From Macrostomum lignano (lineage: Eukaryota), in assembly GCA_002269645.1 (NCBI GenBank), contig NIVC01003469.1, positions 32,377 to 96,376 on the forward strand: a stretch of 64,000 nt of DNA. Reading direction: 5' to 3'. Position 1 is the first letter of the stretch. Each line of letters starts with the position of its first letter. A program made the position numbers and the translations under genes. The notes below the pieces were generated by a model. It did no database searches. It was not told where the DNA came from and worked only from the letters and a program-made list of their open reading frames with translations. Below are positions 14,138 through 39,284 of the stretch, in pieces.

Positions 14138-15288
14138 GAGCAGGTATTCAATCTGAAAAAGTGCCACAGGTTTGCTTGCTGTAGGCAATTTCAAACAAAT
14201 AAAGGCGTTACGTTTGTGGCTTGTTTGTTGTATTATTAGGCAGTGTATATACATATGATACGATTCGCTCGTGTGCGCCTTGGGACTGACTCTCATGAGT
14301 CTAAATCGCCAGAGAGAAAGTCTAATATTACCTGATGTGCACACAGACGCCAGATTTAAATTTGAGTTCAGCTAAACCTGAATTCGGATTTGCTTTAAAG
14401 GAGCTTAAAAAGTTCAGAAATAGCCTAAAAAGCTACCAACTAAAAACTTGCAACTGGTGGGGGCAGGGACTATGTGCATAAAGCAGACGCATGGTCAATT
14501 ATATAGCTGTTTTCCGGTATGCCGTCTAGTGCAGCATCCATCAGATCATCTGATTCCCTATCCCAGTTGTCGGCTGTTGCTGCCTTGCTAAAATGCTAAA
14601 GCTCCCATTGACTGCCCGCTGCGCCTGTGTGGAGCGACGAGAGAGGAGGTACAGAAAAATTCGGTGGCCGTCTGGCCCACTGGCATGCACTGTGAGTGCA
14701 GCAATGTTCAGCAGAATACTATGTGGGTTCCTGTATTGATTTTTTACTGCACAACACGCGGCGCGCTTCTTCCTGCTGGATGCCGGAACTTACTGAAGCA
14801 AGCAGTTTGCGACAATATTTTGTGACGAATATTGTGGTGGCCTCGAAAATAATCGACAAGACAAATACGGCAGAGCCAAATTTGTAGGCGGTAGCACTTG
14901 GCAATAATGGCGACTGATGCGGGCAATGGCCGCAGATTTTGTTTATTGTAACGGAGACAGACCAAAGTACTACTGAATTCGCAAACGATGCACTGGCGGC
15001 TACACAACAATAAGTTAGATGGTAGGAGGCAGAGGGGGTCGATGAGTGTGAGGCAACGGTGACGAAGTGATGGCGGTGAACGTACGGTGGCGGTGCTCGT
15101 AGTAAGAGCTCGAACTGACAGTAGAAGTGGCGTGACTGAGGCTGGCGAAGGCGTAGCTAGAACCGTGGCGGAGAGAGAAGGCAAGTAAAGAAGGAGTGAG
15201 AGCCCAAGGGCGGGCAGAGCAGCGCGGGGCAGGGTAGGGCTTGACGCGGGAGAACGGGTCTAACCCCGAGCGCTCAGCCAGACAGGAC

Positions 15289-22606: not shown

Positions 22607-23323
22607 GGCTGCTGGTTGAAGGCTGGCGGTGTTGCAAGTTGAAATGCAGCAGTCGAAAAGACCGAACTAGTAACTTTTGTCTGGAATATGGAAGCTGCTG
22701 ATACAAATCAAATTTATATGTTCATTACAATATGGTTTCTAAGCCTTTTATTAGGCGAGCTAAAACCTTTCATAAAGAATGCTACAGTTCTTGAATTTGC
22801 CATAGACTAACGGGATGTTGACAGCGGAAATGTGAATGTTAACTTGGTAGGCTGGCAGGCTTTAACTCGAATTGAAAATCTATAATTTATTTTATTTTTT
22901 TATGAAACAATACTGAGCAAATGTGAAACGCAAAGCGAAATGGGCTGGTATCTGATGTAAACACGCTCTGGTCGCGGGATAGGGCAGGGAGAACTTTTTC
23001 GAGAAGTGCCGCCCATCACCGCGCACCTCCTGCGCAGAGCCGTCGAGACTGGGCCAAGTCTTCGACCAGGCCTGCAGACTCTCGCTCTGCTGCACCCCCT
23101 GCTGCCTTGGCTTCGTCTCCCCTGCCGCCACACTTGCCTTTCCGGAGCTCCCTGTCCCTCTCTGTACCTCCCCCTCTACCCTATCTCCTCTGCGCTCCAC
23201 CCTATTTTCTCTGTACCTCCCCTGTCTCCCCTCTTTTTGCCCCTTTTCACACTATTTTCCTGCGCTGTCCCCCCTTTTTCTGCGTCTACTTACAGTATTT
23301 TGCGCGCTCACCGTGCCATCATC

Positions 23324-23656
23324 AGTAGTATTTACGGTACAAAATTGCCAGCAAACCGCTCTCATAATTCAAAGAGAATTAACCCTTTATCAGTGTGAAA
23401 TGGCTCGTTTTCCCTTCATTATCGCTCGTCTTCACTTCGCTTAACTCGCTTCTCTCATCCTCGCTTCATTTCGGTCAATCTCCTCATTTCACACTTACAA
23501 CGATTAATTCTCTTTGAATTATGAGAATACGCCCTCGTCGTTCGCTTTGGTTTGCTGGCAATTTTGTACCGTACCCAACACTTCTAACACTTCCAAATCT
23601 CTATAACCCCTCGCACGCGCCGCAGGCGCGAAGGGTCTTTTTCTGTTACTAAAAAT
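23324..23656 (+). repeat. Left TIR, 333 bp
   Basis: Reverse complement of 38952-39284. Confidence 0.97.
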
Positions 23657-23667
23657 AGAACAAAAAA

Positions 23668-24066
23668 ATGACACACGTTACTTATATGCAAAATCTGAAT
23701 GAATTGCAGGTAGGAGACCCAGTTGAATACCGAGGTGAGGGGCTTTTTGATGTGGTTGGAACAGCAGCGAATTTTGTTAAAGACAATATGGGTCTTATAG
23801 GGCAAGCAGGCTCCGCAGCAGGTTCTATAACAAATGCTGTAAAAGGAGGAATTGAAGCAGCTAGAGCGGCAGAAGAACTAAAGAAATTGAGAGATTTTAA
23901 CGACACCCTCTCACAAATAAATGCAATAAAAGATTTAAAGCTGGCACAAGCCGCACAACCAACAGAAACCCCCACGAAAAGCGCGCCAATAAGTAATAAA
24001 GATATTCAGGATTTTAATAAAATGTTAACCACAATTAAAGGCGGAAAAGGATTAAAGAAATTTTAA
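23668..24066 (+). CDS. Polinton ORF, 132 aa, Gly/Ala-rich, possible virion core/membrane-active protein
   Basis: AAAATG start; amphipathic Gly/Ala segment; GEGLF and GKGL motifs. Confidence 0.75.
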   Translation: MTHVTYMQNLNELQVGDPVEYRGEGLFDVVGTAANFVKDNMGLIGQAGSAAGSITNAVKGGIEAARAAEELKKLRDFNDTLSQINAIKDLKLAQAAQPTETPTKSAPISNKDIQDFNKMLTTIKGGKGLKKF

Positions 24067-24076
24067 CAATATAAAA

Positions 24077-25051
24077 ATGGACACAGATAATAACCGCTTA
24101 TATTTTATAGGAGAAATTGTAGATACTTTAGATCTAGATGATAATAAACATAGCCACACAATGTTAAAAAGATTGGATCGTTTAGGTAAAAAACTTGACT
24201 ACGATATCGATACATTTAAACTTGCTGCAAAATATGCACAAGAAGGAAGGCCAATATCCTTTAAGAATCATGGTAGAAATTATAGGTTGACAGACTCCGA
24301 TGTAAAATTTTTATTGGAGACTCACACTAAAAAAGACGGTGGGTTGTTACCTATTTTACCAATTCTTTTAGGCCTCGGAGCAGCCGGAGCAGCCGGTTTA
24401 GCAGGTAAAAGAATTCATGATAACCGAAAACAGTTAGCAGAATTAAAAGCAAAACAAGGAGGAATATTGCCATTAGCAACTTTATTACCAATAATTTTTG
24501 CAGGAATAGGAGCAGCTGGTGGAATAGCAGGGGGCGCAGCCGGAATCACAAAAGCAGTAAATGATAAAAAAGCTGCGGATGAAAAAGCTAAACGAGATGC
24601 AGAATTTCAAAGACAGCAAATAACACAGGACGCACAATTCAAACAGAAACTTATTGATACCATTAATAGTAGTTCAGCAACAGCAGAGCAAAAAAGAAAT
24701 GCAGAAGCTAGGTTAGCAGCCGGAAAAGGTTTACTGTTAAATGGCAACGGTTTGGTACTAAAAGGAACGACCCAAGGAAGCGGAGTTGTCGCAGATAAAC
24801 TACAGGAATTTGGTCAAACTTTAGAAAAAACGGGTGAGAAAGCTAAAGGATTTTTTGATAATATTGGAGCTAATTTTAGGCCAGCAGTTCAGAAGATTTT
24901 TAATAAGTTAGGAAAAGATTTTAACATAATTGAAAAACACGATGGAAGCGGATTATATCTCGAAATGAGACCAAAAGCAGGTTCAGGAATTTTCTTAAAT
25001 TCAAATGTTATGGGAAATGGATTGCTATTACCAAAAGCAGATCTCGAATAG
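24077..25051 (+). CDS. Polinton core-protein precursor, 324 aa, with two adenovirus pX/mu-like hydrophobic segments
   Basis: GGLLPILPILLGLGAAG and GGILPLATLLPIIFAGIGAAGG resemble adenovirus pX (GGILPLLIPLIAAAIGA); repeated GxG-hydrophobic motifs. Confidence 0.75.
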   Translation: MDTDNNRLYFIGEIVDTLDLDDNKHSHTMLKRLDRLGKKLDYDIDTFKLAAKYAQEGRPISFKNHGRNYRLTDSDVKFLLETHTKKDGGLLPILPILLGLGAAGAAGLAGKRIHDNRKQLAELKAKQGGILPLATLLPIIFAGIGAAGGIAGGAAGITKAVNDKKAADEKAKRDAEFQRQQITQDAQFKQKLIDTINSSSATAEQKRNAEARLAAGKGLLLNGNGLVLKGTTQGSGVVADKLQEFGQTLEKTGEKAKGFFDNIGANFRPAVQKIFNKLGKDFNIIEKHDGSGLYLEMRPKAGSGIFLNSNVMGNGLLLPKADLE

Positions 25052-25135
25052 GCTCCTGGGGGGAGGGTCTGGACACCAAAAACCCAAAATTAAAAAATCA
25101 ATAATTCAAACATTATATAAATTTTATTCTATAAA

Positions 25136-28100
25136 ATGGAACAAAGAATGACCCCAGATCAGATTCGACAACTTCTTGCAAATGAGCGCCAACAGTTCAA
25201 TCGATTACAAAGACAGATTGAACAAATTGAACAGCGCCAAAGACAACAACGCCGCCAAAGAGCAAGAGAAAGACAGAGAGAAAGGCAGAGAGAAAGAGAA
25301 ATACAAGAACAGCAAATAAATGCATTAGCAAATAATATAAGGGCAGAATATGAAATGAAGCGATTAATAGAAAAGGCTGAATATGAAAAAAGAATAGCAG
25401 AATTAGAAAAAAACCAAAAGAAACCCACACGTCGGAAACCTCGGAATAAATCGGATGAAAAACCATTAGATGAGTTTATTAGGGTTTATCGATTTGAACC
25501 AATGCAGAATGTCCTAGATTTTATTGAAACCCAGCTTTCAAACGGATATAGTGTTGAAATTACTAATGCGAGGGTACAATATTTTTATAATAAAACCGGA
25601 GATGATCGCGAAGAGATTAATCAATACTTAGCAACATTTTATAATATAAGCCAATTTCAAGCTTGGTTTAAGCATTTGGTAGAAAACTACGACATGAATT
25701 TAAGTGTGTTTTCTGGAAGACTTAAAATGACACCAAACGAAATTACACTTAAACACGAAAGGTCAAAGCAGGGTATGGGAACAAATGTCATGTGTGAAAT
25801 TGCAGAGTATAAAGATGAGTACTGTTACATACCTAGTGATGGAAATTGTTTCTACAAGTGTGTTCAGTTTATTTATGGTGATAAAGCCCCATCCAAAGAC
25901 GAATATGGTGCTTGGTTGTACGACTCAAGAACCCAAAGAGGATTAATGACAAATTCAAGAATTGGAAAATTCAATGAATATTTTAATCTTAATATAGGGC
26001 TGTATAACCCTAATAATCGTGGAATTGAACCAAAGTCTCAAAGAGGGATTCACCACGACTGGTTATTAATAAATTACTATCACACAGCCGACTATCACAT
26101 TGGTCATTATTGCCTTATATCCAATAAACAACGAGGAATCGCCCTCGAACGGATAAAAGACAATTATAAAGTAGTATTTAAAAACCCAACGCCCGAAAAT
26201 GTTAAAGAGCTAAAAATGTTCACCACATCCACAAATCCCAAAAAATCAAATGTATACATATTTGATTTTGAAACATATTTAAATTATAATCAACAAGCAT
26301 GTCCGTATGCAGTTGGTCTTTTAAACTATAACGACTTTTCTAATAATTGTAACGAAACCCCAGAGACAATAAAGAAACTAACTAAGATCTTGATATCAGA
26401 TCGCGGTTGTGATTTTCAAACTGGTGGAGATAAAATGGACTGTGTTAGAAAAATGTTTAAATACCTTGGTACAGTTAGGTCAAAAAAGATTGTTTTGATC
26501 GCACACAACTCATCCCGCTTCGATTCATACATACCACTATTTTGTAATATAAAACCAATTAAAATTCTTAAAACCCCAAGAGGAATATTATCAATCACTT
26601 TTGTAAACGATTATATGTCAAAAGAGGTTAGAGCGTTTATAAACAAAGATAAGAAGAAGAATCATAAGGATTCGAAACAAACCATTACGATGCTTTGTTC
26701 ATATCAACACGCATCAATGAGTTTAAAAAAGTTTTGCTCATCAATGACAATTAGAGAGGATTTGCGCAAGACCTCAATGGTTCACGACATTACTGAGGAC
26801 GACTACCTAGAGCGCACGGATGAATGGTATGAATATTTACAATTTGATCTTATTTCTTTATGTGCCTGTATTCATAAGTATAATGAAATAGCATATGAAA
26901 TTGGAGGAATGACAATGTTCGATACTCTTACCTGTTCAAGTTTAACATTAAAATGTTGGTTTAAAGATTTTGTTAGAGTTGAAGACAAAATGAAACAATA
27001 CCTAAAGACAAAAGAAAAAAGTAATTACATTAAAAAAGTTGAAGAAATAATATCTCCGTTAAAAATCGAAGATTATTTTGACTTGAGCAAACTTGATAAA
27101 GCGAAATATCAAACACTATTAAGAAAAGAATTTTCGGTTCACTCTCATACCAACCCTTATATAAGAAGGTTTATGAGGGACGCAGTCAAAGGAGGCAGAG
27201 TATTTGCACTAATAAATAAATACGAAAGTGACTGTTTTCAAACAATTGTAGACGTTGTAAAAGGCCATTTAAAAATACCAACAAGCGACCCATGCGAGGT
27301 TATATCAACTTATCTCAAAAGCGATATGGAAGAAAAAAAGAAAATCGCAATTAAACTAAAAAACCAATTGGGTACCGTATCAGATTGTTTAATGAATTTT
27401 GATGGAGTCTCGTTGTACCCATCTGCTATGTCTGATAAGGATAGTGAATATCCAAGAGCAGAAACAGCCAGAGTTTTTGATATAAGCGAGGAAAAAGATT
27501 TTTTGACACAATTTAATTCACAAACCTTTCGACCAAAAACAGCGGTTTTAAAGATTATGTATGAGAACCCTACCAGCGTTTTTCTTCAACATCTCCCATC
27601 GAAAGATAAAGAGAAATTTTATAATCCGGAAACAAAAGCAAACGAAACAAAAACATTAAATAGGTTTAGAAATGGAAAGGTAATCGACACCTTAAGTTCC
27701 GTAGACATACAAGAAATTGTAAGAATGGGTGGAAAAATATTTAAGATATATAGTGGAATTGTATATGAAAAAAATTACGATTTCTCTCCGTTTCAGAATT
27801 ATATTACAAACCTTTTTGAAATGAGAAAAGTATTTAAAAAAGAAAATAACGAGGCGGGTTCTGAATTAGTAAAAACATTGTTAAATTCCTTATATGGTAA
27901 AACGGTTCAAAGAGACATTACTTTCACAACGCATCTCTGGAATTTGAATACATTAAAAACAGAATACGACGACACAATTAAGTCATATGAGAAAATATGT
28001 GACGATTTATTTTATGTTGAAAAAAAGAAAGACACACAAGAATATTTAGATGAGGATGATAATCCTACAACAGGTCTTTGTCCGGCACAATTAGGAATAT

Positions 28101-28606
28101 TTATCTTAGCTCATTCAAGAAGGATCATGAATAATTTTATCACCTCTATAGACGGTTCAAAGACTCCAGAAATTTATTACGGTGATACGGATTCGTTATA
28201 TATACATAAAAAACATTGGGACACATTAAATAAAAACGGGCATGTTGGAAATAATTTAAGTCAAGGAAAAAACGATTATGGAGAGGGCGGAATTATATTC
28301 GGATATTTTATTGCTCCTGAAATTAAATATTGTCTGTTATTGAAAGACGATTTTATTATGGAAGAGAAAAAAACATTTAAAGGATGTGCAAACGATAAGA
28401 TTAATTTTGCATCGTTTAAAACTTTATATGATGGACAGTCAATAAAAGTAAATAATAATGCTCCGTGGAAACGATCGTTTGAAGGCGGTATAAAAATTCC
28501 TCAAAGCGGATCGACCATATCAAAAACATATACTTCTACGATAAACACATTTAAAAGAGAAAAACCGGATAAAAACGGAGTTATGAAATCAATAGCCTTT
28601 TTGTAA
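25136..28606 (+). CDS. pPolB: Protein-primed family B DNA polymerase with N-terminal vOTU-like domain, 1156 aa
   Basis: Exo I FDFET, Exo II HNSSRFD, Exo III YLQFD; Pol A DGVSLYP, B KTLLNSLYGK, C YGDTDS; OTU-like SDGNCFY..GHY. Confidence 0.97.
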   Translation: MEQRMTPDQIRQLLANERQQFNRLQRQIEQIEQRQRQQRRQRARERQRERQREREIQEQQINALANNIRAEYEMKRLIEKAEYEKRIAELEKNQKKPTRRKPRNKSDEKPLDEFIRVYRFEPMQNVLDFIETQLSNGYSVEITNARVQYFYNKTGDDREEINQYLATFYNISQFQAWFKHLVENYDMNLSVFSGRLKMTPNEITLKHERSKQGMGTNVMCEIAEYKDEYCYIPSDGNCFYKCVQFIYGDKAPSKDEYGAWLYDSRTQRGLMTNSRIGKFNEYFNLNIGLYNPNNRGIEPKSQRGIHHDWLLINYYHTADYHIGHYCLISNKQRGIALERIKDNYKVVFKNPTPENVKELKMFTTSTNPKKSNVYIFDFETYLNYNQQACPYAVGLLNYNDFSNNCNETPETIKKLTKILISDRGCDFQTGGDKMDCVRKMFKYLGTVRSKKIVLIAHNSSRFDSYIPLFCNIKPIKILKTPRGILSITFVNDYMSKEVRAFINKDKKKNHKDSKQTITMLCSYQHASMSLKKFCSSMTIREDLRKTSMVHDITEDDYLERTDEWYEYLQFDLISLCACIHKYNEIAYEIGGMTMFDTLTCSSLTLKCWFKDFVRVEDKMKQYLKTKEKSNYIKKVEEIISPLKIEDYFDLSKLDKAKYQTLLRKEFSVHSHTNPYIRRFMRDAVKGGRVFALINKYESDCFQTIVDVVKGHLKIPTSDPCEVISTYLKSDMEEKKKIAIKLKNQLGTVSDCLMNFDGVSLYPSAMSDKDSEYPRAETARVFDISEEKDFLTQFNSQTFRPKTAVLKIMYENPTSVFLQHLPSKDKEKFYNPETKANETKTLNRFRNGKVIDTLSSVDIQEIVRMGGKIFKIYSGIVYEKNYDFSPFQNYITNLFEMRKVFKKENNEAGSELVKTLLNSLYGKTVQRDITFTTHLWNLNTLKTEYDDTIKSYEKICDDLFYVEKKKDTQEYLDEDDNPTTGLCPAQLGIFILAHSRRIMNNFITSIDGSKTPEIYYGDTDSLYIHKKHWDTLNKNGHVGNNLSQGKNDYGEGGIIFGYFIAPEIKYCLLLKDDFIMEEKKTFKGCANDKINFASFKTLYDGQSIKVNNNAPWKRSFEGGIKIPQSGSTISKTYTSTINTFKREKPDKNGVMKSIAFL

Positions 28607-28975
28607 TAGAGATCACATGCTCTGCCTATTAGAAGCCCTGTACATTAAGACCAAACAGCCCACGTTAAATAACCAACTTGCGATGGGTGGGGCTAGCCGT
28701 CAACTCAGAATTTTTTAGCTGATTTGTCAATGACCGGACTGGCTTGAAACTGATATGCACTTTACCCAACCAATACTGTATCAAAAATTGATTACTATGT
28801 ACAAGTTTTAAACCATCAATTAAAAACTCAATTCAACTACTCTTGTTACTCTCAACTATCTATATATACTGAATATTCGTTCAAATTGTTTCTCAATAAA
28901 AAGACCCTGACGATGTCCTAATGCAAATGGACGAAATGCATCGGCAACTCAAATAATACTTCATGTTGATATTTA
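28605..28975 (+). mobile_element. 5'-truncated Penelope-like element fragment inserted between pPolB and the convergent ORF; right boundary approximate
   Basis: 28605-28718 translates NRDHMLCLLEALYIKTKQPTLNNQL..LRIF*, matching the C-terminus of PLE GIY-YIG endonucleases; followed by AATAAA (28895) and a hammerhead-like motif. Confidence 0.75.
28903..28946 (+). ncRNA. Minimal type I hammerhead ribozyme motif (PLE-type)
   Basis: CUGACGA-(U)-GUCC..GGAC-GAAA, palindromic stem III AUGCAU, AUC cleavage triplet ending 28942; stem I weak (CC/GG only). Confidence 0.6.
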
Positions 28976-28982
28976 CCTTTAT

Positions 28983-29399
28983 TTATCTACTCTTCATCAA
29001 GCGAGCCACTTTACCTGATTTATATTTTTCCTTTCTTTTTTTAAGATATAATTTAATTGCTAAAAGTATTGATAAGTTTCTGATTAATTCAAAACCCGAT
29101 ATTGAACCAATTGCAATACCTAAAAATAATTGAGATAAATTAAGAGTTGGAATAGATTGTAAAATACCTAAAATGATTACACATAACATCGATAAGCTTC
29201 CAAAACCAATATTGAAAAAATCCATATTTCTGATATGATTTGAAACTCTTCTTACTTTTTTAGCATATAAATCATAATCATAGTTAATACGATCAACATT
29301 ACTTAACATGTGACCCTTACGTTGGTCGTGCATAGCACGCGAACCTTCGGTTCGGTCAAAATGGTCACGTTCCCTTTTATCTGCTTCAGACACCGACAT
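28983..29399 (-). CDS. Polinton two-TM membrane protein, 138 aa
   Basis: AAAATG start; two hydrophobic helices; basic C-terminus. Confidence 0.75.
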   Translation of the reverse strand: MSVSEADKRERDHFDRTEGSRAMHDQRKGHMLSNVDRINYDYDLYAKKVRRVSNHIRNMDFFNIGFGSLSMLCVIILGILQSIPTLNLSQLFLGIAIGSISGFELIRNLSILLAIKLYLKKRKEKYKSGKVARLMKSR

Positions 29400-29483
29400 T
29401 TTCGTCTATTTTTAATAGCACTAAAATGAATTCCCCGCGCTCTTTGGGGATTTGTCCCGAGCTCAATAGGTATTGTATTGGAG

Positions 29484-29714
29484 TTATTCTTTCTTTTTCT
29501 CCCATTTAAAACCTATTTTCCAAAACTCTTGAAGGATAATATGGTTTTTTAATAATTTAATTAATTCTTGAAGTTTCTTATTATCCTGAACATTCACTCC
29601 ACTAAATAAAATTCGCGTATGAGATTTAAAAGTTTTTATATTTGATTCTTGTTTAGGAATTGGAATGATAACATTATTATTTTGTCGCATCGATGGTGTT
29701 CTACTAAAAGCCAT
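29484..29714 (-). CDS. Polinton small basic ORF, 76 aa
   Basis: TATATAAAATG start; abuts the fibre stop; co-oriented with the structural block. Confidence 0.6.
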   Translation of the reverse strand: MAFSRTPSMRQNNNVIIPIPKQESNIKTFKSHTRILFSGVNVQDNKKLQELIKLLKNHIILQEFWKIGFKWEKKKE

Positions 29715-29730
29715 TTTATATAGAAATATT

Positions 29731-31716
29731 TTATATTGCTACAGGCGGTTGTTCCAAATATGCAGTCGCAGCAAAATCATAGCCTGCTGATGTGCTACCA
29801 CAAACGGCGGCACCACGAATAAAATGTGCAGCATCTGCTCCTCCAGTTCGAGCACCAAAACCCATAAGAGTTCCCGTTTTATCCAAAGTTCCCCAAGTTC
29901 CGCTATCATATGTAAAAAAGTTTTGCCCAATTAGCGTGTACACTTTGGTTGAAACATTGTATGTGCTTATTTGATACCAAATTCTTTGATTAAGAATATT
30001 TATTTCAAGCAGATGCCAATCACCATTATCAATATTTGCATAAGTTATTGTTTGATCGGCGTCGTTAAGAACATCATTACGAACTGTTGCTCCGTCTGAT
30101 TTTATATTACTCCAAACAACTCCAACTCTGTCAGTCCACTCACTCGCAAACACTATCAAGCCGGCGTTGGTTGTTAATCCAGATCCAAATTCAGTTGTTG
30201 GCCGTTCGTGACAATATGCATAAAACCAAACAGCGTCAGCACCATCTCCTGCAGAATTAGCAACTCGGAAATAGAAGGAGGCGGAGATATTACGAAAATG
30301 GGTGAAATTGAATTGTAACGCTCCAGACCGACCCGATGCTTCATCAGTAATTCTAGCACCATTTTGATAATCAATATATACAGCATCTCCAACAAAACTT
30401 CCAGTTGGAAAAATATCGCCGGCAGTGGTTGGGTTTTGATACCCAGTCCAATTACAAATTACGGGTTCGTACAAATCGGCATCAATCGCAGGTATTCCAT
30501 CCAATTTTATTTTATCGTTAAAAGACATTCGGCCATCTGCCGTTTGTGTTACAACGGTATCAACATAACCCTTAGTAACAACAGAACTGTTATCGTTTAT
30601 AGTAGAGATATTAGTAATTGTATTACCACCCATATCAATTGATTGATTAACTACTCCTAAATTTAAATCAAGAATTGTAAAAGTCTGTCTATAAATCTGA
30701 AAAGTTGCCAAGCCTGGGTTGGTAGAACCCGATGTTGATGTAAGACAGAACAATCTGAAATATGAATATGTTTTATCAAAATTTTGTGTGACATTAATTG
30801 TTTGAGTTGAATTATTTATTTCTACAGAACTATCCGCCGGTATTAAAACATCCCAACTTGTATTGTCATTACTCCCCTCAAATCGCCATGATGCTGGGTG
30901 TTCGGTTGAAGGTGATGGTCTCCCACGTAAATCAATTTTATAACACATTATCGCGGAAGGGCATTGGACTTGAATCCAATAATCAGTTTGAGTATTATTT
31001 ATTGCCCAATCTGTTGAGTCATTTCCATCAAACGCTTTCCAACTTGCAAAATCAGTTGTATTAAATGCGGTGCTTGCGGTTATTGCAAAACCATTTCCGC
31101 TCCAATCTGCCATTGTTGGTATGTGGCCAGTTTCAACCGTTTGGAATCGATCCTGTTTTGGGGCTCCACCTCCAACTAAATTATCAACTTCAGTTTTGGT
31201 ATAAGAATCAGCTATATTCCGTTTTAAATTTAAGGAATTATCCACCTCTGTTTTGGTATAGGAATCGGCAACGTTCCGTTTTAAATTTAAGGAATTATCC
31301 ACCTCTGTTTTGGTATAGGAATCTGCAACATTCCGTTTTAAATTTAATGATGTGTCGATTTCAGTTTTGGTGTAGGAATCAGTTATATCTCTTTTTAAAT
31401 TTAAGGAATTATCAACTTCAGTTTTGGTGTAGGAATCGGCAACATTTCGTTTTAAATTTAATGAATCATCTATTTGAGTTTTGGTATAGGAATCTGCAAC
31501 ATTTCTTTTTAAATTTAATGAATCATCTATTTGAGTTTTGGTATAGGAATCTGCAACATTTCTTTTTAAATTTAGTTTATTATCAATTTCAGTTTTTTTA
31601 TAACCTTCATCTTCATTAATATATCGGTTATCTCCGAATGTAACACTTATACCACCAGTTGTACCACCACCAGTACTTGTTGTTCCGTTCCATGAGGGCG
31701 TTCCAGAAAATAACAT
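29731..31716 (-). CDS. Fibre/receptor-binding-like protein, 661 aa
   Basis: Seven 19-aa repeats NLKRNVADSYTKTEVDNSL; F5/8-type C/discoidin-like module (AFDGN..W..YWIQ..W.FEGSND..W); tail-fibre-like linkers MGGNTITN..TKGYVD and GRMSFNDKIKLDGI; C-terminal L-type lectin/ConA-like region (GDGADAVWF). Confidence 0.75.
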   Translation of the reverse strand: MLFSGTPSWNGTTSTGGGTTGGISVTFGDNRYINEDEGYKKTEIDNKLNLKRNVADSYTKTQIDDSLNLKRNVADSYTKTQIDDSLNLKRNVADSYTKTEVDNSLNLKRDITDSYTKTEIDTSLNLKRNVADSYTKTEVDNSLNLKRNVADSYTKTEVDNSLNLKRNIADSYTKTEVDNLVGGGAPKQDRFQTVETGHIPTMADWSGNGFAITASTAFNTTDFASWKAFDGNDSTDWAINNTQTDYWIQVQCPSAIMCYKIDLRGRPSPSTEHPASWRFEGSNDNTSWDVLIPADSSVEINNSTQTINVTQNFDKTYSYFRLFCLTSTSGSTNPGLATFQIYRQTFTILDLNLGVVNQSIDMGGNTITNISTINDNSSVVTKGYVDTVVTQTADGRMSFNDKIKLDGIPAIDADLYEPVICNWTGYQNPTTAGDIFPTGSFVGDAVYIDYQNGARITDEASGRSGALQFNFTHFRNISASFYFRVANSAGDGADAVWFYAYCHERPTTEFGSGLTTNAGLIVFASEWTDRVGVVWSNIKSDGATVRNDVLNDADQTITYANIDNGDWHLLEINILNQRIWYQISTYNVSTKVYTLIGQNFFTYDSGTWGTLDKTGTLMGFGARTGGADAAHFIRGAAVCGSTSAGYDFAATAYLEQPPVAI

Positions 31717-31726
31717 TTTTTACTGT

Positions 31727-32194
31727 CTATTTTATAGAGTCTAAAATCGCCCCGTAGGGTCGCATACTTTGTATGATCCCTTTAAAGTCTTCGGGTCTTT
31801 CCTTAGAGTTATTAATTTTATATAAAAAATACAACGCCGCTTGCCCGCAATAACTTTTATCAAATGTTTGAAATTGTTCGTGATAATCTCCACATAAACG
31901 ATTTTTAGTATGATTAAATTTATCTTTTATTTCCTGTAACGGAGGAAGCGCGTATGAATCAAAAAAATAAACAAGTTTAGGTTTGGAATAAACTGCCGAC
32001 CAATGAACACCGTTTTCTTTTGTTGTTTCAATATTAACAATGAAAGATCCATATTTTGGTAAGTCTTTTATCTCATCCCGCATAACACATCTGAATGGTT
32101 TTATTTTTAACTGCCGCGCCCAATTTGTTAATTCGATATTGCTTGTTGTGTCTGTTCCATATCTTTGTTTAAAATCATCCCACGTTAGTGCCAT
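31727..32194 (-). CDS. PRO: Adenain-like cysteine maturation protease, 155 aa
   Basis: GVHWSA (His), FFDSY (Asp), FQ..SYCG (Gln/Cys). Confidence 0.93.
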   Translation of the reverse strand: MALTWDDFKQRYGTDTTSNIELTNWARQLKIKPFRCVMRDEIKDLPKYGSFIVNIETTKENGVHWSAVYSKPKLVYFFDSYALPPLQEIKDKFNHTKNRLCGDYHEQFQTFDKSYCGQAALYFLYKINNSKERPEDFKGIIQSMRPYGAILDSIK

Positions 32195-32195
32195 T

Positions 32196-32369
32196 TTATG
32201 TTCCTGAAAAACTCTTGGTTTTAGTTAGTTTTGTAGGTTTAGATTTTAACAGTTCCTTTCGGATTTTTTCTGCTTGAAGGTGTTTCAATTTTGTTAATTC
32301 GATTTCATAATTATCCTTTGCATTTTGAACTTTATCTGATTGTTTTTTTAAAACATTGTTGTTACCCAT
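32196..32369 (-). CDS. Small Lys-rich ORF, 57 aa (MGNNNVLKKQ...KSFSGT), absent from the ORF track
   Basis: Hand-translated; CTATAGTAAAAATG start; fills the mCP-PRO gap, stop 1 nt before the PRO ATG. Confidence 0.65.
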   Translation of the reverse strand: MGNNNVLKKQSDKVQNAKDNYEIELTKLKHLQAEKIRKELLKSKPTKLTKTKSFSGT

Positions 32370-32413
32370 TTTTACTATAGGAAACGGACGAAGTCCTCGC
32401 CCCTACGGGGCGG

Positions 32414-33199
32414 TTAAACCTGTTTTATCCGTAAAATTACCGTTATTGATTGCCCACCAAAACTTATTAATCTATCGCTTTCATCTACAATCCTAATATA
32501 AATTGATTGAACACTATATTGAGTTAAAGGATAATATATTGGGGTTTGGGGTGAAACAATCATTTTCTCTCCAATTGGAACAGCAAGAAACGGGATTGAA
32601 TAAATAATTCCACGTTGAACCAAAACTCCGTTATCGTCTGTTATATAACCACCGTTTGATATGTCGGTTGTTATATTAATTGTATTAACTCCACCCTCAA
32701 TATTTCCAACTGTATCGCCGGTGCTTGATGTGGTAACGATTCGGGAATTAAATCCGAGTATGGTTCTGAGTGAATTTGCAATTGTGAAATCAACCTGATA
32801 TCCGGATTCGAGTGATAGTGTGAATCTGCCAGATGGTAAATCAACCCCTATAACAATTGCGCCTGCAACCCAATCTCCATTAGCTGTTAATTCTCCTTCT
32901 ATATAAGCATTCAAATCGGTATAAGAATATGCTCCTGGGTTAACGCTAAATGTTGTCCAATTGGCTCCGGAATCTTTAGAATATCTAAATTGATTATTTG
33001 TTGCATTAATTAATTGAGGCATGTTAAAAACTGAAAATAGTATCAAACCTATTTGATAACTTAGGCTTTGATCGAGTTGTAACGGATCACGCAATTGAAT
33101 GCGTTGTTCACTGGTTGTCATTATAAACTGTAAGGTTGTACTAAATTTTGAATTAGTTCGATCTACCAATTGTTTTATAGTATCTAAATTTGTAGCCAT
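32414..33199 (-). CDS. mCP: Minor capsid (penton) protein, 261 aa
   Basis: Start at CTATAAAAATG (33199); beta-rich; motifs NxxFxY, PGAY, VPxGEK..P..PIYYP, IxIRIVDE typical of Polinton pentons. Confidence 0.85.
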   Translation of the reverse strand: MATNLDTIKQLVDRTNSKFSTTLQFIMTTSEQRIQLRDPLQLDQSLSYQIGLILFSVFNMPQLINATNNQFRYSKDSGANWTTFSVNPGAYSYTDLNAYIEGELTANGDWVAGAIVIGVDLPSGRFTLSLESGYQVDFTIANSLRTILGFNSRIVTTSSTGDTVGNIEGGVNTINITTDISNGGYITDDNGVLVQRGIIYSIPFLAVPIGEKMIVSPQTPIYYPLTQYSVQSIYIRIVDESDRLISFGGQSITVILRIKQV

Positions 33200-33245
33200 T
33201 TTTATAGTGGGAGAATCGGACGAAGTCCGCGTTCCGAAGGAACGA

Positions 33246-34001
33246 TCACTCCTCATCGTCTTCTTTTATCAGATCTTTTAAGATTCGATTTTTCCTTTCT
33301 AACCTAGGGTTGATATATATATATTTATATTGACTATCATCCCAAATTTTTTTACACATACTTTTGAATGGTTTTGCATCCAACCCAGGATTAAATCTAG
33401 TGTGGATATTTTGTAAATCATAGTTATCTAAATCAAACATTACACAACAGCTAGCATTCTTTTTTATAATTGATTCTAATTCTCTAAAGGATTGGGTAAG
33501 ATAAAATGCTCCAATTCCATCTCCTCTACCACTAACAAAAATTTCCTTTTGCAATTCTTGATCGCCATCATTAATACAATCATCAAAAATAATTAGTGTT
33601 TTATCATGTTTTGGAATTTGATCATAGGATAATCGGGTTGATACTCTAACAGTTGGGGCTCGGTTGTTAATGTTTTCCGGTTCTTTTGCAGTTGTTTTAC
33701 ATAAATCCTCAATGTCATCGAGTGTAAATCTTGGTTCATCATCGTCCTCATATTGCTCATATGCTCTTAACATTCTAAACAAGATATCTTTTTTTAATTT
33801 GTTTTTTAATCCATGTTTAAGAAATTCATAATATTTTATTCTAGGTTTGTTAGTATATATTAATAAATTATTATAGTCTAACATTCCATCTGTTGTTAAT
33901 AAATCGTAAACAAAGTGTGTTTTTCCTTTACCTGATCCTCCGATTACTAAACAAAGAAAAGGATCATTTGGAAATATCTTATCGTGTTTTGCCTTTACCA
34001 T
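33246..34001 (-). CDS. ATPase: A32/FtsK-HerA-family genome-packaging ATPase, 251 aa
   Basis: Walker A GGSGKGKT, Walker B LIIFDD, GRG (usually GRH) and TQ motifs. Confidence 0.95.
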   Translation of the reverse strand: MVKAKHDKIFPNDPFLCLVIGGSGKGKTHFVYDLLTTDGMLDYNNLLIYTNKPRIKYYEFLKHGLKNKLKKDILFRMLRAYEQYEDDDEPRFTLDDIEDLCKTTAKEPENINNRAPTVRVSTRLSYDQIPKHDKTLIIFDDCINDGDQELQKEIFVSGRGDGIGAFYLTQSFRELESIIKKNASCCVMFDLDNYDLQNIHTRFNPGLDAKPFKSMCKKIWDDSQYKYIYINPRLERKNRILKDLIKEDDEE

Positions 34002-34020
34002 TTTTAAAGAAATAATTTAA

Positions 34021-35493
34021 CTAAATTGGGGCGTCACGAACAATCGTGCCATCAGCTTTAGCAATTGACATATATTCCTCTAGAAACAATACGTGGGCGT
34101 CGATTGCCTGATTACCGGTTTTATTAATCTCTAACATGTAATTAAGTCCAACATTGGCTACGTTTTCTTTCTGTGCCGTTAGATCATAAACAACCACTGG
34201 ATGAATGTTTAGAAATTCTGTGGGTGTGTACTGAGGGACGGCAAATGCTTCATTTTTGACATAATCTTGATAATATTTTATAAAATCATTAACATTATTA
34301 TTTGCTATGTTTAGATTAAGGGGGTCTTTAACCGGATAATATTGATCATCAACCTGCAGGCGGATATTCTGAACATTAAACTCGTTAATAGCTGCAGCCG
34401 CATTGTCTGTTGCAGTAGCTGCTTGTGCTGCTATGGCACCGGATTGAAGCCAATATAAATCCCCATTTGTTCTTTTACTCCTTCTGTTTGTTATTTTAAA
34501 CCAAACAAAAATATATCTCACCCGACGTTTTGATGTAATTATCTGCCACTGGAATGAATCCTGGTTATTATTAATGGTTCGCATAAAATGTCGACGATTC
34601 AAATAAAATATTTCCTGATCATGCGTTAACTGATTATCGATGTGTTTTAAAAGTGGGGCTGTTACCTCAATAGTTGGTACGACTAATTGAATTGAATCTA
34701 TACGAATTGCTATATCGGTTGAAATCGAGGTTCCATAAAGTATCCTAGGCTGATATCCGCCAGATATTTGCAACTGTATCCCAAATTTTAATCCTTTCCA
34801 TACCCGATTTGGTGAGAAGAACCCAAATAGTGGAAAGATTGAAAAGTCTTGCTCATATGCTGTTGCTGTGGTTAAAACCGCGACTGGGAATTTATTCTGA
34901 CGATCTATAAAACCTGTATTAATATCTTTTGTATTAGTCATGGTGGTTACAACTGGAACTATATTGGTATTAAGATAAGCTATAAGAGCTGCGGTATCTG
35001 CACCAGCTGCGTTTTGTACATTAGGGAAAACTACTGCTTGACCATTACCCTTATCAGGCATCCACCCAACATTATCACCAACTTGTTTTGATAAATAAGT
35101 ATAATTTAAATGTTTCAAAACTCCATTATTCTCTGCGGGATTTGATGCTGTCTCAACCTCGGCTCCATTAACTGACAGTTGGGCTTGGGAAAAACATTTA
35201 TAAAACCAATCATTTTCTATTATTATTCCAGAACGATCTGCGATATCGTCGGCTGCAAGAGCAGTTCCATCATTTCTAGTATACAACCATCTAACACGGA
35301 AAAATGCGTTTTTCATATCCAATATAGTGTTGGTTGCGCCGATGTCAAAAGTTACCGTTCCAGTAGTAAAGTTATTTGAATTATCACTTGTTGGTAGGGT
35401 AAAATTTAAATCTCTTGCTCTGACCTCATTAATATACTGACGGTGCTTTTTGAAATGAAATTTATCACTCCACATAGTTTTTGTTTCAGCCAT
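34021..35493 (-). CDS. MCP: Major capsid protein (double jelly-roll), 490 aa
   Basis: Size, position next to ATPase/penton, beta-rich; motifs F..AQLSVNGAEVE, F+YLNR, RYIFVWF, QYYP, P+VVYDLT. Confidence 0.85.
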   Translation of the reverse strand: MAETKTMWSDKFHFKKHRQYINEVRARDLNFTLPTSDNSNNFTTGTVTFDIGATNTILDMKNAFFRVRWLYTRNDGTALAADDIADRSGIIIENDWFYKCFSQAQLSVNGAEVETASNPAENNGVLKHLNYTYLSKQVGDNVGWMPDKGNGQAVVFPNVQNAAGADTAALIAYLNTNIVPVVTTMTNTKDINTGFIDRQNKFPVAVLTTATAYEQDFSIFPLFGFFSPNRVWKGLKFGIQLQISGGYQPRILYGTSISTDIAIRIDSIQLVVPTIEVTAPLLKHIDNQLTHDQEIFYLNRRHFMRTINNNQDSFQWQIITSKRRVRYIFVWFKITNRRSKRTNGDLYWLQSGAIAAQAATATDNAAAAINEFNVQNIRLQVDDQYYPVKDPLNLNIANNNVNDFIKYYQDYVKNEAFAVPQYTPTEFLNIHPVVVYDLTAQKENVANVGLNYMLEINKTGNQAIDAHVLFLEEYMSIAKADGTIVRDAPI

Positions 35494-35527
35494 TTTTTTA
35501 AGTTAAAAAAGTTTTTTATGTTAAAAA

Positions 35528-36199
35528 ATGAGTCAATTTATGGACGTTGATGGAGAGTTAGCGATTTATAAAGAGAAGCAAAGATATTCTGATTTTGTTA
35601 GAAATTTGCAAAAAAGAAAGTTAGGAATACAATTAGCTGGTGAAAGATTTGCTGCTCCTTTTGTTAATCCTATTACGGGGAAAATTAGTGAACTAGAAAA
35701 AACAGATAAAGACCTTCTGGAAAAAATTGCTAAGAATACCGAGCCAAAAGAGGATGAAATTTTGGATGAGCCGCCTACTTATGATGTTGATCAAGCACTA
35801 TTGAGAGTTGCAGAAATTAGGGCTGCAGAAAGGGGTAGAGTTGAACAATATCCGAGAGCTGCACCAACTAGTATTGCTGTGCGAGATTTAGAGAATAATA
35901 ATTATCGAATTGGTGGAGTTGTTAAAAATCGAAATGAACTATATAGTGAATTGGGCGGAGCATATAATATTATTATGAACCCGAGGGTAAAATTTAATCC
36001 TGAATTATATACTAGGGATGAATTAGTAAGTGCTAAAAATTTTTATGATGAGTTAGGAGTAAGAGCTGCTAAGAATACAAGTTTATATAAAAGGATTGTT
36101 GATTCTATAAATAACAAACCGGCTGTTGGAGAAGGATTTAAAACTCCACGAAAACTTGTTTTAGCTGCTGCGAAAGCTGCTGGACATACCGGTGTTTAA
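35528..36199 (+). CDS. Polinton conserved-type ORF, 223 aa, function unknown
   Basis: AAAATG start; ends GEGF..KLVLAAAKAAGHTGV, resembling the Polinton LLxASxxAGN motif. Confidence 0.7.
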   Translation: MSQFMDVDGELAIYKEKQRYSDFVRNLQKRKLGIQLAGERFAAPFVNPITGKISELEKTDKDLLEKIAKNTEPKEDEILDEPPTYDVDQALLRVAEIRAAERGRVEQYPRAAPTSIAVRDLENNNYRIGGVVKNRNELYSELGGAYNIIMNPRVKFNPELYTRDELVSAKNFYDELGVRAAKNTSLYKRIVDSINNKPAVGEGFKTPRKLVLAAAKAAGHTGV

Positions 36200-36230
36200 T
36201 TAATTAATTGTTAAATTTATTTTTTATAAA

Positions 36231-36830
36231 ATGGATGAAACAAAGATTTGTAGTCGATGTAAAGAAGAAAAGCCTATGACGAAAGAATTTTTTAGATGGA
36301 GAAATGATTCAAAAAAATTTAGAAATGATTGTCGATCTTGTGAGAACGTTATATCACAACTGTGGATAAAAAATAATAAAGAATATCTAAAAAACAAATA
36401 TCACACTGATGAAAATTACAAACTTATTATAAACACACGAAATAGAATAAATTCTCTTCTAAAATCAAATAATGGTCGAAAAAATAATCATACTATTGAT
36501 TACCTTGGTTGCTCAATTGAGTTCTTTACTGATTGGTTAAATTTCACAAAACATTATTATGTTCCAAAAAGTTATACTGGAAAGTTACATATTGATCATT
36601 TCATTCCCGCTTCTTCATTTAGTTACAAAGACGAAGATCAAAGGAAAAAGTCGGAACATTGGACAAATAAAAGATACTTAGCTGCTTTTGATAATAAAAC
36701 TAAATTTGTTAAACAACCAACCGTTGAAGAGTTTGCAAAACAATTAGTGTTAACTTGTATTTTTAAGGCTATTAAAAATGAGCAACCGAACGAAGTTCGC
36801 GAACCTTGGGTTCGACCAATTAGTATTTGA
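36231..36830 (+). CDS. Free-standing HNH/endonuclease VII-like nuclease with N-terminal CxxC..CxxC zinc finger, 199 aa
   Basis: CSRC..CRSC; RNRINSLLK..YLGCSIE; LHIDHFIPASSF..HWTN..DNKTK beta-beta-alpha-metal pattern, as in homing-endonuclease-like proteins of large DNA viruses. Confidence 0.8.
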   Translation: MDETKICSRCKEEKPMTKEFFRWRNDSKKFRNDCRSCENVISQLWIKNNKEYLKNKYHTDENYKLIINTRNRINSLLKSNNGRKNNHTIDYLGCSIEFFTDWLNFTKHYYVPKSYTGKLHIDHFIPASSFSYKDEDQRKKSEHWTNKRYLAAFDNKTKFVKQPTVEEFAKQLVLTCIFKAIKNEQPNEVREPWVRPISI

Positions 36831-38387
36831 AGGAGGATTATTGGACGTTCAAAAAGGATTAACAAGTTTACCACCAATCTTTACTACTGGAAAATATACT
36901 GGGGAACTACACCTACCATCAATGAACTTCACAGGTTAGTCCGTGGCCTGAGTGAGGAAGGCAATGTCCTTGCTAGTCACTATTTGTGGCGACATCTTCA
37001 AATTGCGTGAAACCCGTCATACAGCTTCAAGTACCACTTCAATTGAGAAATCTTTTGAAGGAACAGAGGTAACTCCTCTTCCCAAAGGTAACAAGCTTGA
37101 AGACAAGGTGGCAATGCGCAGCCAAGCTCCTAAGTATTTTAAATATAAGGAGAAGGTTCAGAGAGCAGACGGAGATGGGCGGTAATTTAACCGCTTAAGG
37201 TGTGCTCCAGCCTCTTTCGAAAGATTGAGGGTAAACTACCCGGCACTAAGTTAGATTTGAGATTAAATCCTGATGACACTCCAAAAGCTGATTCAATTCC
37301 CATTAACGGTATTGATTGGTTAGCATACTATCATGACTTAGCATACAGAGATGCTGATAAGAACTCACCCGAGGAAGCATTAAGATTAAAACATGAAGCC
37401 GATCAAAAAATGATTCAAGGATTAGATAACTTACAAGGATTGTCAATAGGCCAAAGATTAACTCGGTGGATGGTTAAAAAGATTCTGCAATCTAAAGTTA
37501 AATTTGGTTTGGGAATTAATTACAATCAACATGGAAATAATTGTGCTGAGTGTTTACTATTAAGTGGCAGTGGGTTAAGTTCTGATAAGGCAAAGATTCT
37601 TCATAAAGAATATCGAAAACCTAAATTTTATAGAAAAATCATGAACTTCAAAAAGAATGAAATTTGGTATGCTGATTTAATGTCGATGCCGAGCGACAGA
37701 GGATATAAATATATTTTAACCATATTAGATGGTTTTACTAGATACGCGTGGGCAGTTCCTTTAAAATCCAAAAAAGGAGATGAGGTTGCTGCTGCTTTTA
37801 GAAGTCTTGATGAAAAAAGCGAAAGGTTGTGTGTTGATGAAGGAAAAGAATTTTACAATCCTCATATGTATAAATTGTATCATTTTGAAAAAGGACAAGA
37901 AAGGAAAAAGGACGCGAATGGGGAGTATATTAATAAAATTTATTCTATTTATGGAGAAAGCAAAAATGCCTTTATTGAAAGATTTAATCGAACTTTAGGT
38001 AAGAAATTGTGGTTTCAGTTTAGTCTTAATGGAAATCAAAAGTGGGTAAAAATATTACCAGACGTCGTGAAAGATTATAACAATTCATATCATTCGGCTA
38101 TAAAGATGACTCCTCAACAAGCTTATATCAGTCCTGAAAAAGTTAAAGTTACTTTTGGAGAATTTGAAAAAAATAAAAAGAAATCTTTTAAGGTTGGTGA
38201 TTCTGTTTATATCTATAAATGGAAAGATAAGTTTGAAAAGGGAAGAAAAGGATATTGGAAAATAAGTGAGAAATTTACTATCAGTAAAGTTTTAAATACC
38301 AATCCTACAACCTATATAATTGCTGATAAGGATGGTGAAGAAATATTGGGTTCGTTTTATGAGAATCAAATAATATCTGCGAACTAA
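36778..38387 (+). CDS. INT: PLA2X-integrase fusion, join(36778..36936,37239..38387), 435 aa after intron removal
   Basis: Splicing restores GELHLPSMNFTG|PGTKLDLRL (PLA2 GPG loop), then HDLAY and EAD; integrase D (YADL), D (VDEGKEF), E (IERFNRTL); AAAATG start at 36778. Confidence 0.9.
36937..37238 (+). ncRNA. Group I intron, subgroup IC1, 302 nt, ORF-less, terminal omega-A
   Basis: Hand-paired P1 (U.G at 5' splice site), P2, P2.1, P3, P4, P5abc, P6, P7, P8, P9, P9.0, P10; P/Q/R/S-like motifs AAUUGCGUGAAA, AAUGCGCAGCCAAG, GUUCAGAGAGCAGA, UAAGGUGUGCUCC. Confidence 0.93.
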
Positions 38388-38397
38388 GTTCGAACAA

Positions 38398-38622
38398 TTA
38401 CTTAAGACAACAGGGTAGTAAATTTTTTATAACAAACAAAAACAATATTATTACTATTATTGTAACTAATATAATTATTGACATTTGTTCAACAGATATC
38501 AAACTTAAATTTTCATTAAGTTCATTAATCGGCACATTTCCGATGTAGGAGTAGTTTACCTTCATTTTTTTATATATATTTTTCATAATAAATGTTGTTT
38601 CTGTTATAGAATAATAGTTCAT
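38398..38622 (-). CDS. Small single-TM protein, 74 aa from ATG 38622
   Basis: AAAATG start; TM IIILVTIIVIILFLFVI followed by KNLLPCCLK. Confidence 0.6.
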   Translation of the reverse strand: MNYYSITETTFIMKNIYKKMKVNYSYIGNVPINELNENLSLISVEQMSIIILVTIIVIILFLFVIKNLLPCCLK

Positions 38623-38638
38623 TTTTTTAATATTTTTT

Positions 38639-38953
38639 TCACATAAAAATTTCAATTTCATTCTCAGAATCACTAGTTTCATATGAGCTATTTGTTGAGT
38701 TGGAATCATCTGAACGAACCTTCCAATCATCCGAATTTAAATAATCTCCAAGTTGAAATATTAACTCACCCTCTTGCTCTAAATCATACATCCCATCCAA
38801 CTCTAATGGATAAAGTTTTAGGTCGTGCTTGTCGTCATACTTTAAATAAACTTCATCAATTATTCCATTCAAAATATGTTGTTTTATTATCTCTGCATTT
38901 TTAGCAACAGTCTCAAAAGTATCACTAACAGAAAAGGTGTAAACTCGGGTCAT
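38639..38953 (-). CDS. Polinton acidic ORF, 104 aa
   Basis: ATG at the inner edge of the right TIR (AAAAATG); intact ORF. Confidence 0.65.
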   Translation of the reverse strand: MTRVYTFSVSDTFETVAKNAEIIKQHILNGIIDEVYLKYDDKHDLKLYPLELDGMYDLEQEGELIFQLGDYLNSDDWKVRSDDSNSTNSSYETSDSENEIEIFM

Positions 38954-39284
38954 TTTTAGTAACAGAAAAAGACCCTTCGCGCCTGCGGCGCGTGCGAGGG
39001 GTTATAGAGAATTGGAAGTGTTAGAAGTGTTGGGTACGGTACAAAATTGCCAGCAAACCAAAGCGAACGACGAGGGCGTATTCTCATAATTCAAAGAGAA
39101 TTAATCGTTGTAAGTGTGAAATGAGGAGATTGACCGAAATGAAGCGAGGATGAGAGAAGCGAGTTGAGCGAAGTGAAGACGAGCGATAATGAAGGGAAAA
39201 CGAGCCATTTCACACTGATAAAGGGTTAATTCTCTTTGAATTATGAGAGCGGTTTGCTGGCAATTTTGTACCGTAAATACTACT
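38952..39284 (-). repeat. Right TIR, 333 bp
   Basis: Reverse complement of 23324-23656 with 2 mismatches. Confidence 0.97.

Follow-up and report, generated by a model that had tools for sequence, protein, structure and literature searches.

A Gly-Pro codon pair split by a group I intron as a putative point of nuclease conflict among Polintons of Macrostomum lignano

Two distant families of Polintons in the genome of Macrostomum lignano have purged the word GGNCC almost everywhere. A Gly-Pro codon pair in the PLA2-integrase gene, split by a group I intron, appears to be the last such site left, and it may be contested by nucleases of competing Polintons. We lean towards the reading that a short-site nuclease lacking a methylase acts here, either in homing or as an interference weapon, and that the intron masks a site that cannot be silently recoded. 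Judged by sequence, the enzyme tied to the junction is an Eco47II-like protein that the copy presented here does not encode; the HNH-type nuclease of this copy would be a second, unrelated homing-type enzyme that has come and gone in a gene slot shared by the two. We hold more tentatively a fuller picture, in which Polintons in an animal nucleus engage in methylase-free restriction conflict. A restriction-derived GGNCC cutter would have turned into a single-site homing endonuclease through a genome-wide purge that included Gly-Pro pairs, and an active, often A-ending group I intron would mask the last site. Intron-encoded, free-standing and nuclease-swapped states would then coexist in one genome, with the HNH enzyme competing for the slot.

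The element, its integrase gene and its intron

The stretch of DNA that we analyzed, here called the window, comprises 64,000 nt of M. lignano contig NIVC01003469.1 (forward strand, 32,377-96,376), from a genome of 764 Mb. It contains a whole Polinton of 15,961 bp (23324..39284) with the hallmarks of Polinton/Maverick elements: terminal inverted repeats of 333 nt (23324..23656 and 38952..39284), a 6-bp target duplication (copies at 23318-23323 and 39285-39290) and, by Pfam, pPolB, an A32 packaging ATPase and an rve integrase. Its capsid genes were assigned from size and position only. Each terminal repeat contains nested inverted repeats (23333-23573 and 39035-39275) that could form terminal hairpins, and a 661-aa fibre-like ORF includes 57-nt tandem repeats (31122-31653) as well as an F5/8 type C domain. 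In the host flanks lie genes for an fn3 protein and for an amiloride-sensitive channel (Pfam ASC, E 7e-35), the latter with a long unbroken frame (12434-14371), as well as an LTR retroelement whose pol has an open frame of 1,317 aa (7392-11345). The ASC family points to an animal host.

The PLA2-integrase gene, like the intron and nuclease ORF discussed below, lies on the forward strand. Exon 1 (36778..36936) has 53 codons, the last encoding Gly, and is colinear with intron-less copies, while exon 2 (37239..38387) encodes the remainder of a PLA2-like domain fused to an rve integrase; the Pfam matches of exon 2 to Phospholip_A2_4 (E 0.0047) and rve (E 1e-6) both fall below the Pfam cut-offs. 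The intron sits between the Gly and Pro codons, and intron-less copies have GGNCC at precisely this point. In the window, the Gly codon (36934..36936) is the 5' half of the split word and the start of the Pro codon (37239-37240) its 3' half. Under the genetic code a Gly-Pro codon pair always contains GGNCC, and the junction site therefore cannot be recoded silently. The first-pass annotation had named the gene PLA2X-INT, a label that does not fit, as PLA2X denotes PLA2 plus pX (PMC8502044) and the gene here joins a PLA2-like domain to rve. Elsewhere in the element, an ORF with a weak match to adenovirus pX (24077-25051) stands apart from the PLA2 domain; the adintovirus PLA2X gene is different (PMC8502044). 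A scan of viral contigs with the PLA2-integrase exon found no relatives.

A census seeded with the window sequence gave 156 distinct places (150 of 509 exon-2 candidates were scored; L127 and L128, which have no exon-2 match, were left out beforehand). Family 1 accounts for 140 of these places and family 2 for 16; the integrases of the two families are 59% identical and their capsid proteins about 24%. Because the copies are related, pooled counts are not independent. A genome-wide search with a degenerate junction motif returned 22 intron-less junctions, 3 in family 1 and 19 in family 2, and a control returned none.

The window intron (type A, 302 nt, 36937..37238) matches Rfam RF00028 with 67.2 bits (cut-off 50) and has no ORF within it, as had been reported. 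Its ends were set by the natural intron-less copies L137, L154 and L181 together with the P1, P7, P9.0 and P10 pairings, and it has the features of a group I intron, namely a P3-P7 core, a P1 with a U-G pair and a G-binding pair. The P1 guide (36946-36950) forms 5 of 5 pairs, P7 joins 37161-37167 with 37203-37208, P9.0 joins 37209-37210 with 37236-37237, and P9 occupies 37211-37230. P7 is fully paired in 108 of the 111 family-1 type-A copies that were parsed (3 were not), and both of its strands are present in all 24 type-B copies. A comparison of the window type with type B, with family 2 and with a metagenome copy shows fully compensatory changes in P7, with the G-binding G-C pair kept.

The window intron ends in A (37238) rather than the canonical G. 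Among 113 type-A introns of family 1, 84 end in A and 29 in G, and the P9.0 dinucleotide is kept in 84/84 of the former versus 17/29 of the latter, counts that come from related rather than independent copies. The A-ending introns are mostly tied to one exon-2 start haplotype, and both endings segregate among copies. The A ending leaves the intron in the group I class because a natural exception has been published: in the accessible part of PMC8146996, the omega-A group I intron ND5-717 of the Stichodactyla haddoni mitochondrion naturally ends in A. A cryptic in-frame G lying 9 nt further upstream was another candidate for the 3' splice site but is disfavored, since P9.0 and P10 indicate 37238 and the G-ending copies align there. 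Contigs from four runs that we guessed to be RNA (they possibly include DNA, and rare forms are dropped) showed intron removal in 0 of 5 listed joints, and unspliced contigs from these runs span both junctions.

At the same 5' site, L049, L135 and 22 more family-1 copies carry a type-B group I intron of about 330 nt with a different core. Its 3' end holds the former Pro-Gly codons, so that no in-frame splice choice restores Gly-Pro, and type-B copies may have escaped the GGNCC site at the protein level. One of them, L169, has about 830 nt of foreign DNA inserted in the intron. Read contigs with loose ends at window positions 36943 and 36979 suggest more families: they contain more intron variants, with different exon contexts and with longer insertions where the family-2 copy L118 has its intron ORF.

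Two unrelated nucleases in one slot

Upstream of the PLA2-integrase gene lies a slot whose upstream edge is a forward-strand 223-aa ORF with no Pfam match (35528..36199); this ORF precedes either type of slot occupant. In the window, the slot is filled by a free-standing ORF of 199 aa (36231..36830) with a CxxC...CxxC zinc finger followed by D122-H123...N146...N155. Its reported placement outside the intron agrees with our coordinates: it overlaps the PLA2-integrase gene by 53 nt in a different frame, because that gene starts at the ATG at 36778, and it stops 106 nt upstream of the 5' splice site, because the intron ends are fixed at 36937-37238. The stop position, about 106 nt before the splice site, is common to both types of slot gene.

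The zinc-finger/HNH identity proposed at first pass is supported by the conserved D-H...N...N catalytic pattern of HNH (beta-beta-alpha-metal) nucleases. H123, N146, N155 and K158 are invariant across 64 aligned homologues picked from the top 150, and among 55 distinct intact copies in this genome, D122, N146 and N155 are present in all and H123 in 54. The ORF is intact in 71 of 93 copies, with a dN/dS of 0.48 compared to 0.31 for the neighboring gene, and the protein is probably active as a nuclease. A full HMMER search found 9,436 proteins at E<=0.001; a word-indexed protein search and Pfam gave no match, and a PDB sequence search gave nothing useful. The structure model (pLDDT 92.8) had Cas9 HNH, BrxU and ScoMcrA as its top Foldseek rows, none at E 0.001, and a VIA comparison with HNH domains gave Z under 4, so that the fold comparisons point weakly to HNH domains.

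The same first-pass annotation had placed the protein near EndoVII, in the family of F-CphI, and here we disagree. The phrog_1035 profile, which PHROGs labels endonuclease VII, does match residues 2-132 (E 1e-10), and a match to Hpy99I is limited to the finger. As defined in the portion of PMC6083498 available, the DHHRN family has a central DHDH motif and flanking cysteine pairs, CX2-4C ahead of the motif and CX2C behind it, the CX2C lying beside the catalytic Asn. The window protein reads D122-H123-F-I, with no support for a second DH in the 64-homologue consensus; its four cysteines (C7, C10, C34 and C37) are all in the N-terminal finger, and no CX2C precedes N146 or N155. By these motifs the window HNH falls outside the F-CphI/EndoVII (DHHRN) family.

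An unrelated protein of 167 aa fills the slot in 37 of the 140 family-1 places. Pfam relates it to RE_Eco47II (PF09553), above the cut-off for the intron-encoded version in L118 (26.2 bits versus 25.9) and below it for the free-standing version in L072 (20.6 bits, E 3.8e-4). The PD-(D/E)xK residues D65, E76 and K78 are invariant in 11 of 11 sequences, and 27 of the 37 slot copies are intact. The best fold for its model is EcoO109I (Z 9.8, rmsd 3.7 over 166 residues, about 13% identity), with the next row at Z 6.1; Foldseek placed EcoO109I and AvaII at E<1e-3, below a top row, DdmD, that is no restriction enzyme. Eco47II has been linked to GGNCC (PMC10305163), EcoO109I cuts RGGNCCY and AvaII cuts GGWCC (PMC7337904, PMC12944874), as stated in the accessible parts of these sources. 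From family and fold, we infer that the Eco47II-like protein cuts GGNCC.

The same protein also occurs within the intron. In family 2, 14 of 16 copies have neither intron nor either nuclease, and in the other two (L118 and L126) the site is occupied by an intron of 880 nt that encloses a homologue of the 167-aa protein. In the metagenome contig L333, too, the Gly-Pro junction is interrupted by an intron, here G-ending, that encodes the enzyme. For 5 of the 9 homologues in databases, the reading frame continues into the core of the intron found at this site. A search of the M. lignano genome gave 103 matches, 13 of them with long open frames (L118 included); a viral-contig scan with the Eco47II-like alignment and a phage tblastn found no relatives.

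We compared slot occupants with introns across family 1. The 98 HNH copies have intron A in 79 cases, intron B in 16 and no intron in 3, while the 37 Eco47II-like copies have intron A in 30 cases and intron B in 7; the difference in intron-less copies (3/98 versus 0/37) is not significant (Fisher p 0.56). The remaining five places have a truncated or other slot. L187 has a third, unrelated acidic ORF of 153 aa in the slot, and L188 and L189 have a tandem-repeat insertion inside the Eco47II-like gene. Slot type is only weakly linked to flanking exon and intron columns (r2<=0.41), and two flank trees of 109 copies imply at least 11 and 14 changes of slot type, compared to about 22 with shuffled labels, although recombination weakens such trees. 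On this sequence evidence, slot type is clustered yet repeatedly swapped.

Loss of GGNCC and its possible causes

Avoidance of restriction sites is familiar in phages, and restriction-modification is known in chloroviruses. The window Polinton contains no GGNCC where 19.7 are expected, making this the most depleted xxNxx word, while its host flanks contain 102 versus 116 expected. Codon shuffles of the element gave a mean of 14.4 sites and never reached zero in 1000 trials, and synonymous-only shuffles gave a mean of 5.1 and reached zero in 7 of 1000. Gly-Pro dipeptides are likewise absent from its 4,416 aa (8.5 expected, with the exons counted apart). A Pfam search of its 13 ORFs found no methyltransferase, and avoidance therefore appears to replace methylation; this element is itself an HNH-carrying copy.

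The depletion extends across both families. Family-1 loci with the Eco47II-like gene contain no GGNCC (120 expected), and those with HNH contain 12 (275 expected). Nine sites were located in anchored loci: three are the intron-less junctions and six lie in one foreign insertion. Eight long family-1 stretches have 0, 0, 1, 0, 0, 1, 3 and 0 sites. Among 12 family-2 stretches, five intron-less ones of 9.9 kb have a single GGNCC each, which is the junction, and one beside an intron-bearing copy has none. Two have the junction plus one internal site, one of these with three more beyond the element, and the other four, which consist mainly of flank, are truncated elements or contain a GC-rich insertion, have more sites. 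Five other pPolB groups in the same genome retain GGNCC, with observed/expected values of 1/3.8, 3/6.4, 2/7.3, 6/6.7 and 11-12/16, a PLA2-bearing virus contig keeps the word (9/15.2), and control IMG/VR loci are mildly depleted (373 versus 490 expected, with 2 of 60 loci at zero). As a separate observation, virus contig L335 has an intron-less PLA2 domain that is fused after a protease-like region and keeps GGNCC, with no GGCC in 10.7 kb.

In the reading that we favor, the Eco47II-like protein, which lies inside the intron at this site and also free-standing just upstream of an ORF-less version, would be expressed during element replication and cut GGNCC. With all other sites purged, a short-site cutter would act as a single-site homing or interference nuclease. 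Intron-less rivals would be broken at the insertion point, repair templated by a carrier would spread the intron, and the intron would be spliced out. The window copy would keep its intron as a shield against the Eco47II-like enzyme of its relatives, regardless of what occupies its own slot. Several observations weigh against this reading. The same genome still contains at least 19 family-2 junctions that have no intron. Third-position diversity is 0.23-0.25 beside the junction versus 0.08-0.17 further on, so that there is no dip of the kind that a selective sweep or recent homing would leave. Such a cutter would also meet about 2 sites per kb of host DNA, and our guess is that the host tolerates it through restricted expression.

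The first-pass annotation had proposed that the HNH enzyme cuts intron-less alleles of competing animal Polintons in a collaborative homing system, with the intron protecting self. A conflict at this exact site is well supported, but the enzyme tied to it is the Eco47II-like one. The layout of a gene outside and adjoining an ORF-less intron stands; strict co-inheritance does not, given the 3 intron-less copies among 98 HNH carriers, and neither does a specific partnership, as HNH occurs with intron A, intron B or none, and the intron occurs without HNH in all 37 other-nuclease copies. This failure may still be compatible with resistance by sequence difference or with silent integrated copies. 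That the HNH protein itself reads a longer site across the intron-less junction, alongside the proposed Eco47II-like steps, is a possibility we regard as doubtful. In its favor, the HNH gene sits in the slot of the Eco47II-like gene and overlaps the next gene as that one does, 95 of 98 copies have an intron, the catalytic residues are conserved and dN/dS is 0.48. It would, however, require two unrelated enzymes to converge on one site. Two of the three intron-less carriers have an intact ORF with all motifs, and the HNH of one carrier is 89-91% identical to those of intron-bearing copies. The intron-less L154/L181 lineage occupies two places that are 99.2% alike and has therefore probably multiplied without the intron, and the weak association between slot type and the exon and intron columns also counts against this account. 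The plain intron-less junction is probably not the target of the HNH protein. As a candidate site, GAANNNTTC was rejected because it is missing from the window element yet found inside several HNH genes, and no other word stood out.

Relatives of the HNH protein elsewhere lend this account further weight. The homologue P0006, 37-42% identical to the window protein and placed in its subgroup (SH-aLRT 94, unstarred, on a short alignment), has a tail 70% like the window intron core over 43 aa, the sole such case in 150 homologues. P0006 thus appears to be encoded in an intron of this family, which favors homing by HNH; a viral-contig scan with P0006 found no relatives. Among 122 IMG/VR loci with an intron motif, about 16 have HNH profile matches, and we read 8 of these. 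In L253 and L192, more distant relatives lie between capsid exons and run into the intron core; Rfam supports the introns of 6 of the 8 loci, the exceptions being L253 and L270. Group I introns, along with HNH ORFs that belong broadly to the family of the window protein, occur in the giant-virus capsid genes of L253, L192, L237, L234, L254, L259 and L213.

Alternatively, the GGNCC enzyme could be aimed mainly at other DNA in the manner of a restriction enzyme: that of a helper giant virus or of unrelated elements, for example, or the host's chromatin in a lytic phase. The intron would then serve self-protection, and homing would be a side effect or absent. We consider this somewhat less likely again. 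Genome-wide avoidance implies that cutting is not confined to a long site, many sites are kept in host flanks and in other pPolB elements, and the junction has no sweep signature. Intron nucleases have also been suggested to mediate interference in Bodo saltans virus (PMC5871332) and demonstrated to do so in phage (PMC11620839), in the parts of these papers available. In contrast, a gene inside or adjoining an intron at the one remaining site, found in three settings, is the layout of a homing endonuclease, and family 2 is polymorphic for intron plus ORF (2 with and 14 without, n=16). It is very improbable that the nucleases are hitchhikers without activity, that the intron is fixed simply because it is rarely lost, and that base composition explains the missing GGNCC: about a quarter of slot ORFs are broken and 84 of 113 type-A introns end off the canonical splice site, but the neighboring gene is equally often broken (77/105 intact), the dN/dS values are 0.48 and 0.31, codon-aware nulls reject a chance absence of GGNCC, P7 has changed in full compensation between intron types, and P9.0 is kept in every A-ending intron.

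If the conflict that we favor is real, homing specificity could arise without a long recognition site, through a target population that removes all other sites, and an intron would guard the one site that protein function retains. Selection would clearly favor even an ORF-less intron for the immunity it confers, nuclear-integrated viruses of a probable animal would be added to the settings of group I introns and nuclease conflict, and the free-standing and intron-encoded stages of a proposed path to mobile introns would be present in one genome. The segregating A and G ends offer a natural test of 3' splice-site rules.

Relation to known systems

In the literature covered, which was mainly open access and limited to main texts (PLV introns are listed in the PMC12220804 supplements and could be relevant), we found no group I intron in a Polinton/Maverick and no Polinton restriction-endonuclease or avoidance system. 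Two other reports, seen in part, concern different cases: HNH domains fused to nematode pPolB (10.1101/2023.08.22.554363) and collaborative homing mentioned for poxvirus-associated PLVs (PMC11296320).

The window layout works like intron-nuclease interference (PMC5871332, PMC11620839) and like the collaborative homing described for F-CphI and the psbA intron of cyanophage S-PM2, as far as the accessible text of PMC6083498 and PMC3984707 goes. Here, however, the host element is a Polinton of a probable animal, either of two unrelated nucleases can occupy the slot, the HNH protein has no DHHRN motif, and the better-supported partner is a restriction-fold enzyme that is both free-standing and intron-encoded at one site. 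In Bodo saltans virus, group I introns with HNH or GIY-YIG ORFs occur along with ORF-less offspring, and nuclease competition has been proposed, as here (PMC5871332). Protist PLVs also have ORF-less group I introns, another case of introns in eukaryotic dsDNA viruses, although their hosts are protists only and the introns have no annotated nuclease (PMC12220804). The available portions of these two accounts make no mention of site avoidance, unlike our case. The terminal G-to-A change is shared with ND5-717 of S. haddoni, where the intron is mitochondrial; in M. lignano, viral copies integrated in the nuclear genome segregate for A and G endings and keep the G-binding pair unchanged (compared with the accessible part of PMC8146996).

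The likeness to Eco47II, EcoO109I and AvaII lies in the Pfam and fold matches of the slot protein, and the avoided word is their common core, GGNCC. Unlike these type II enzymes, the Eco47II-like protein is shorter (167 aa) and intron-linked, and no methyltransferase turned up in the 13 ORFs of the window element. The PD-(D/E)XK enzyme I-Ssp6803I likewise uses a restriction fold in intron homing, and according to the part of PMC3424549 available it reads a 17-bp site, whereas here single-site action would come from the purging of a word specified by four bases.
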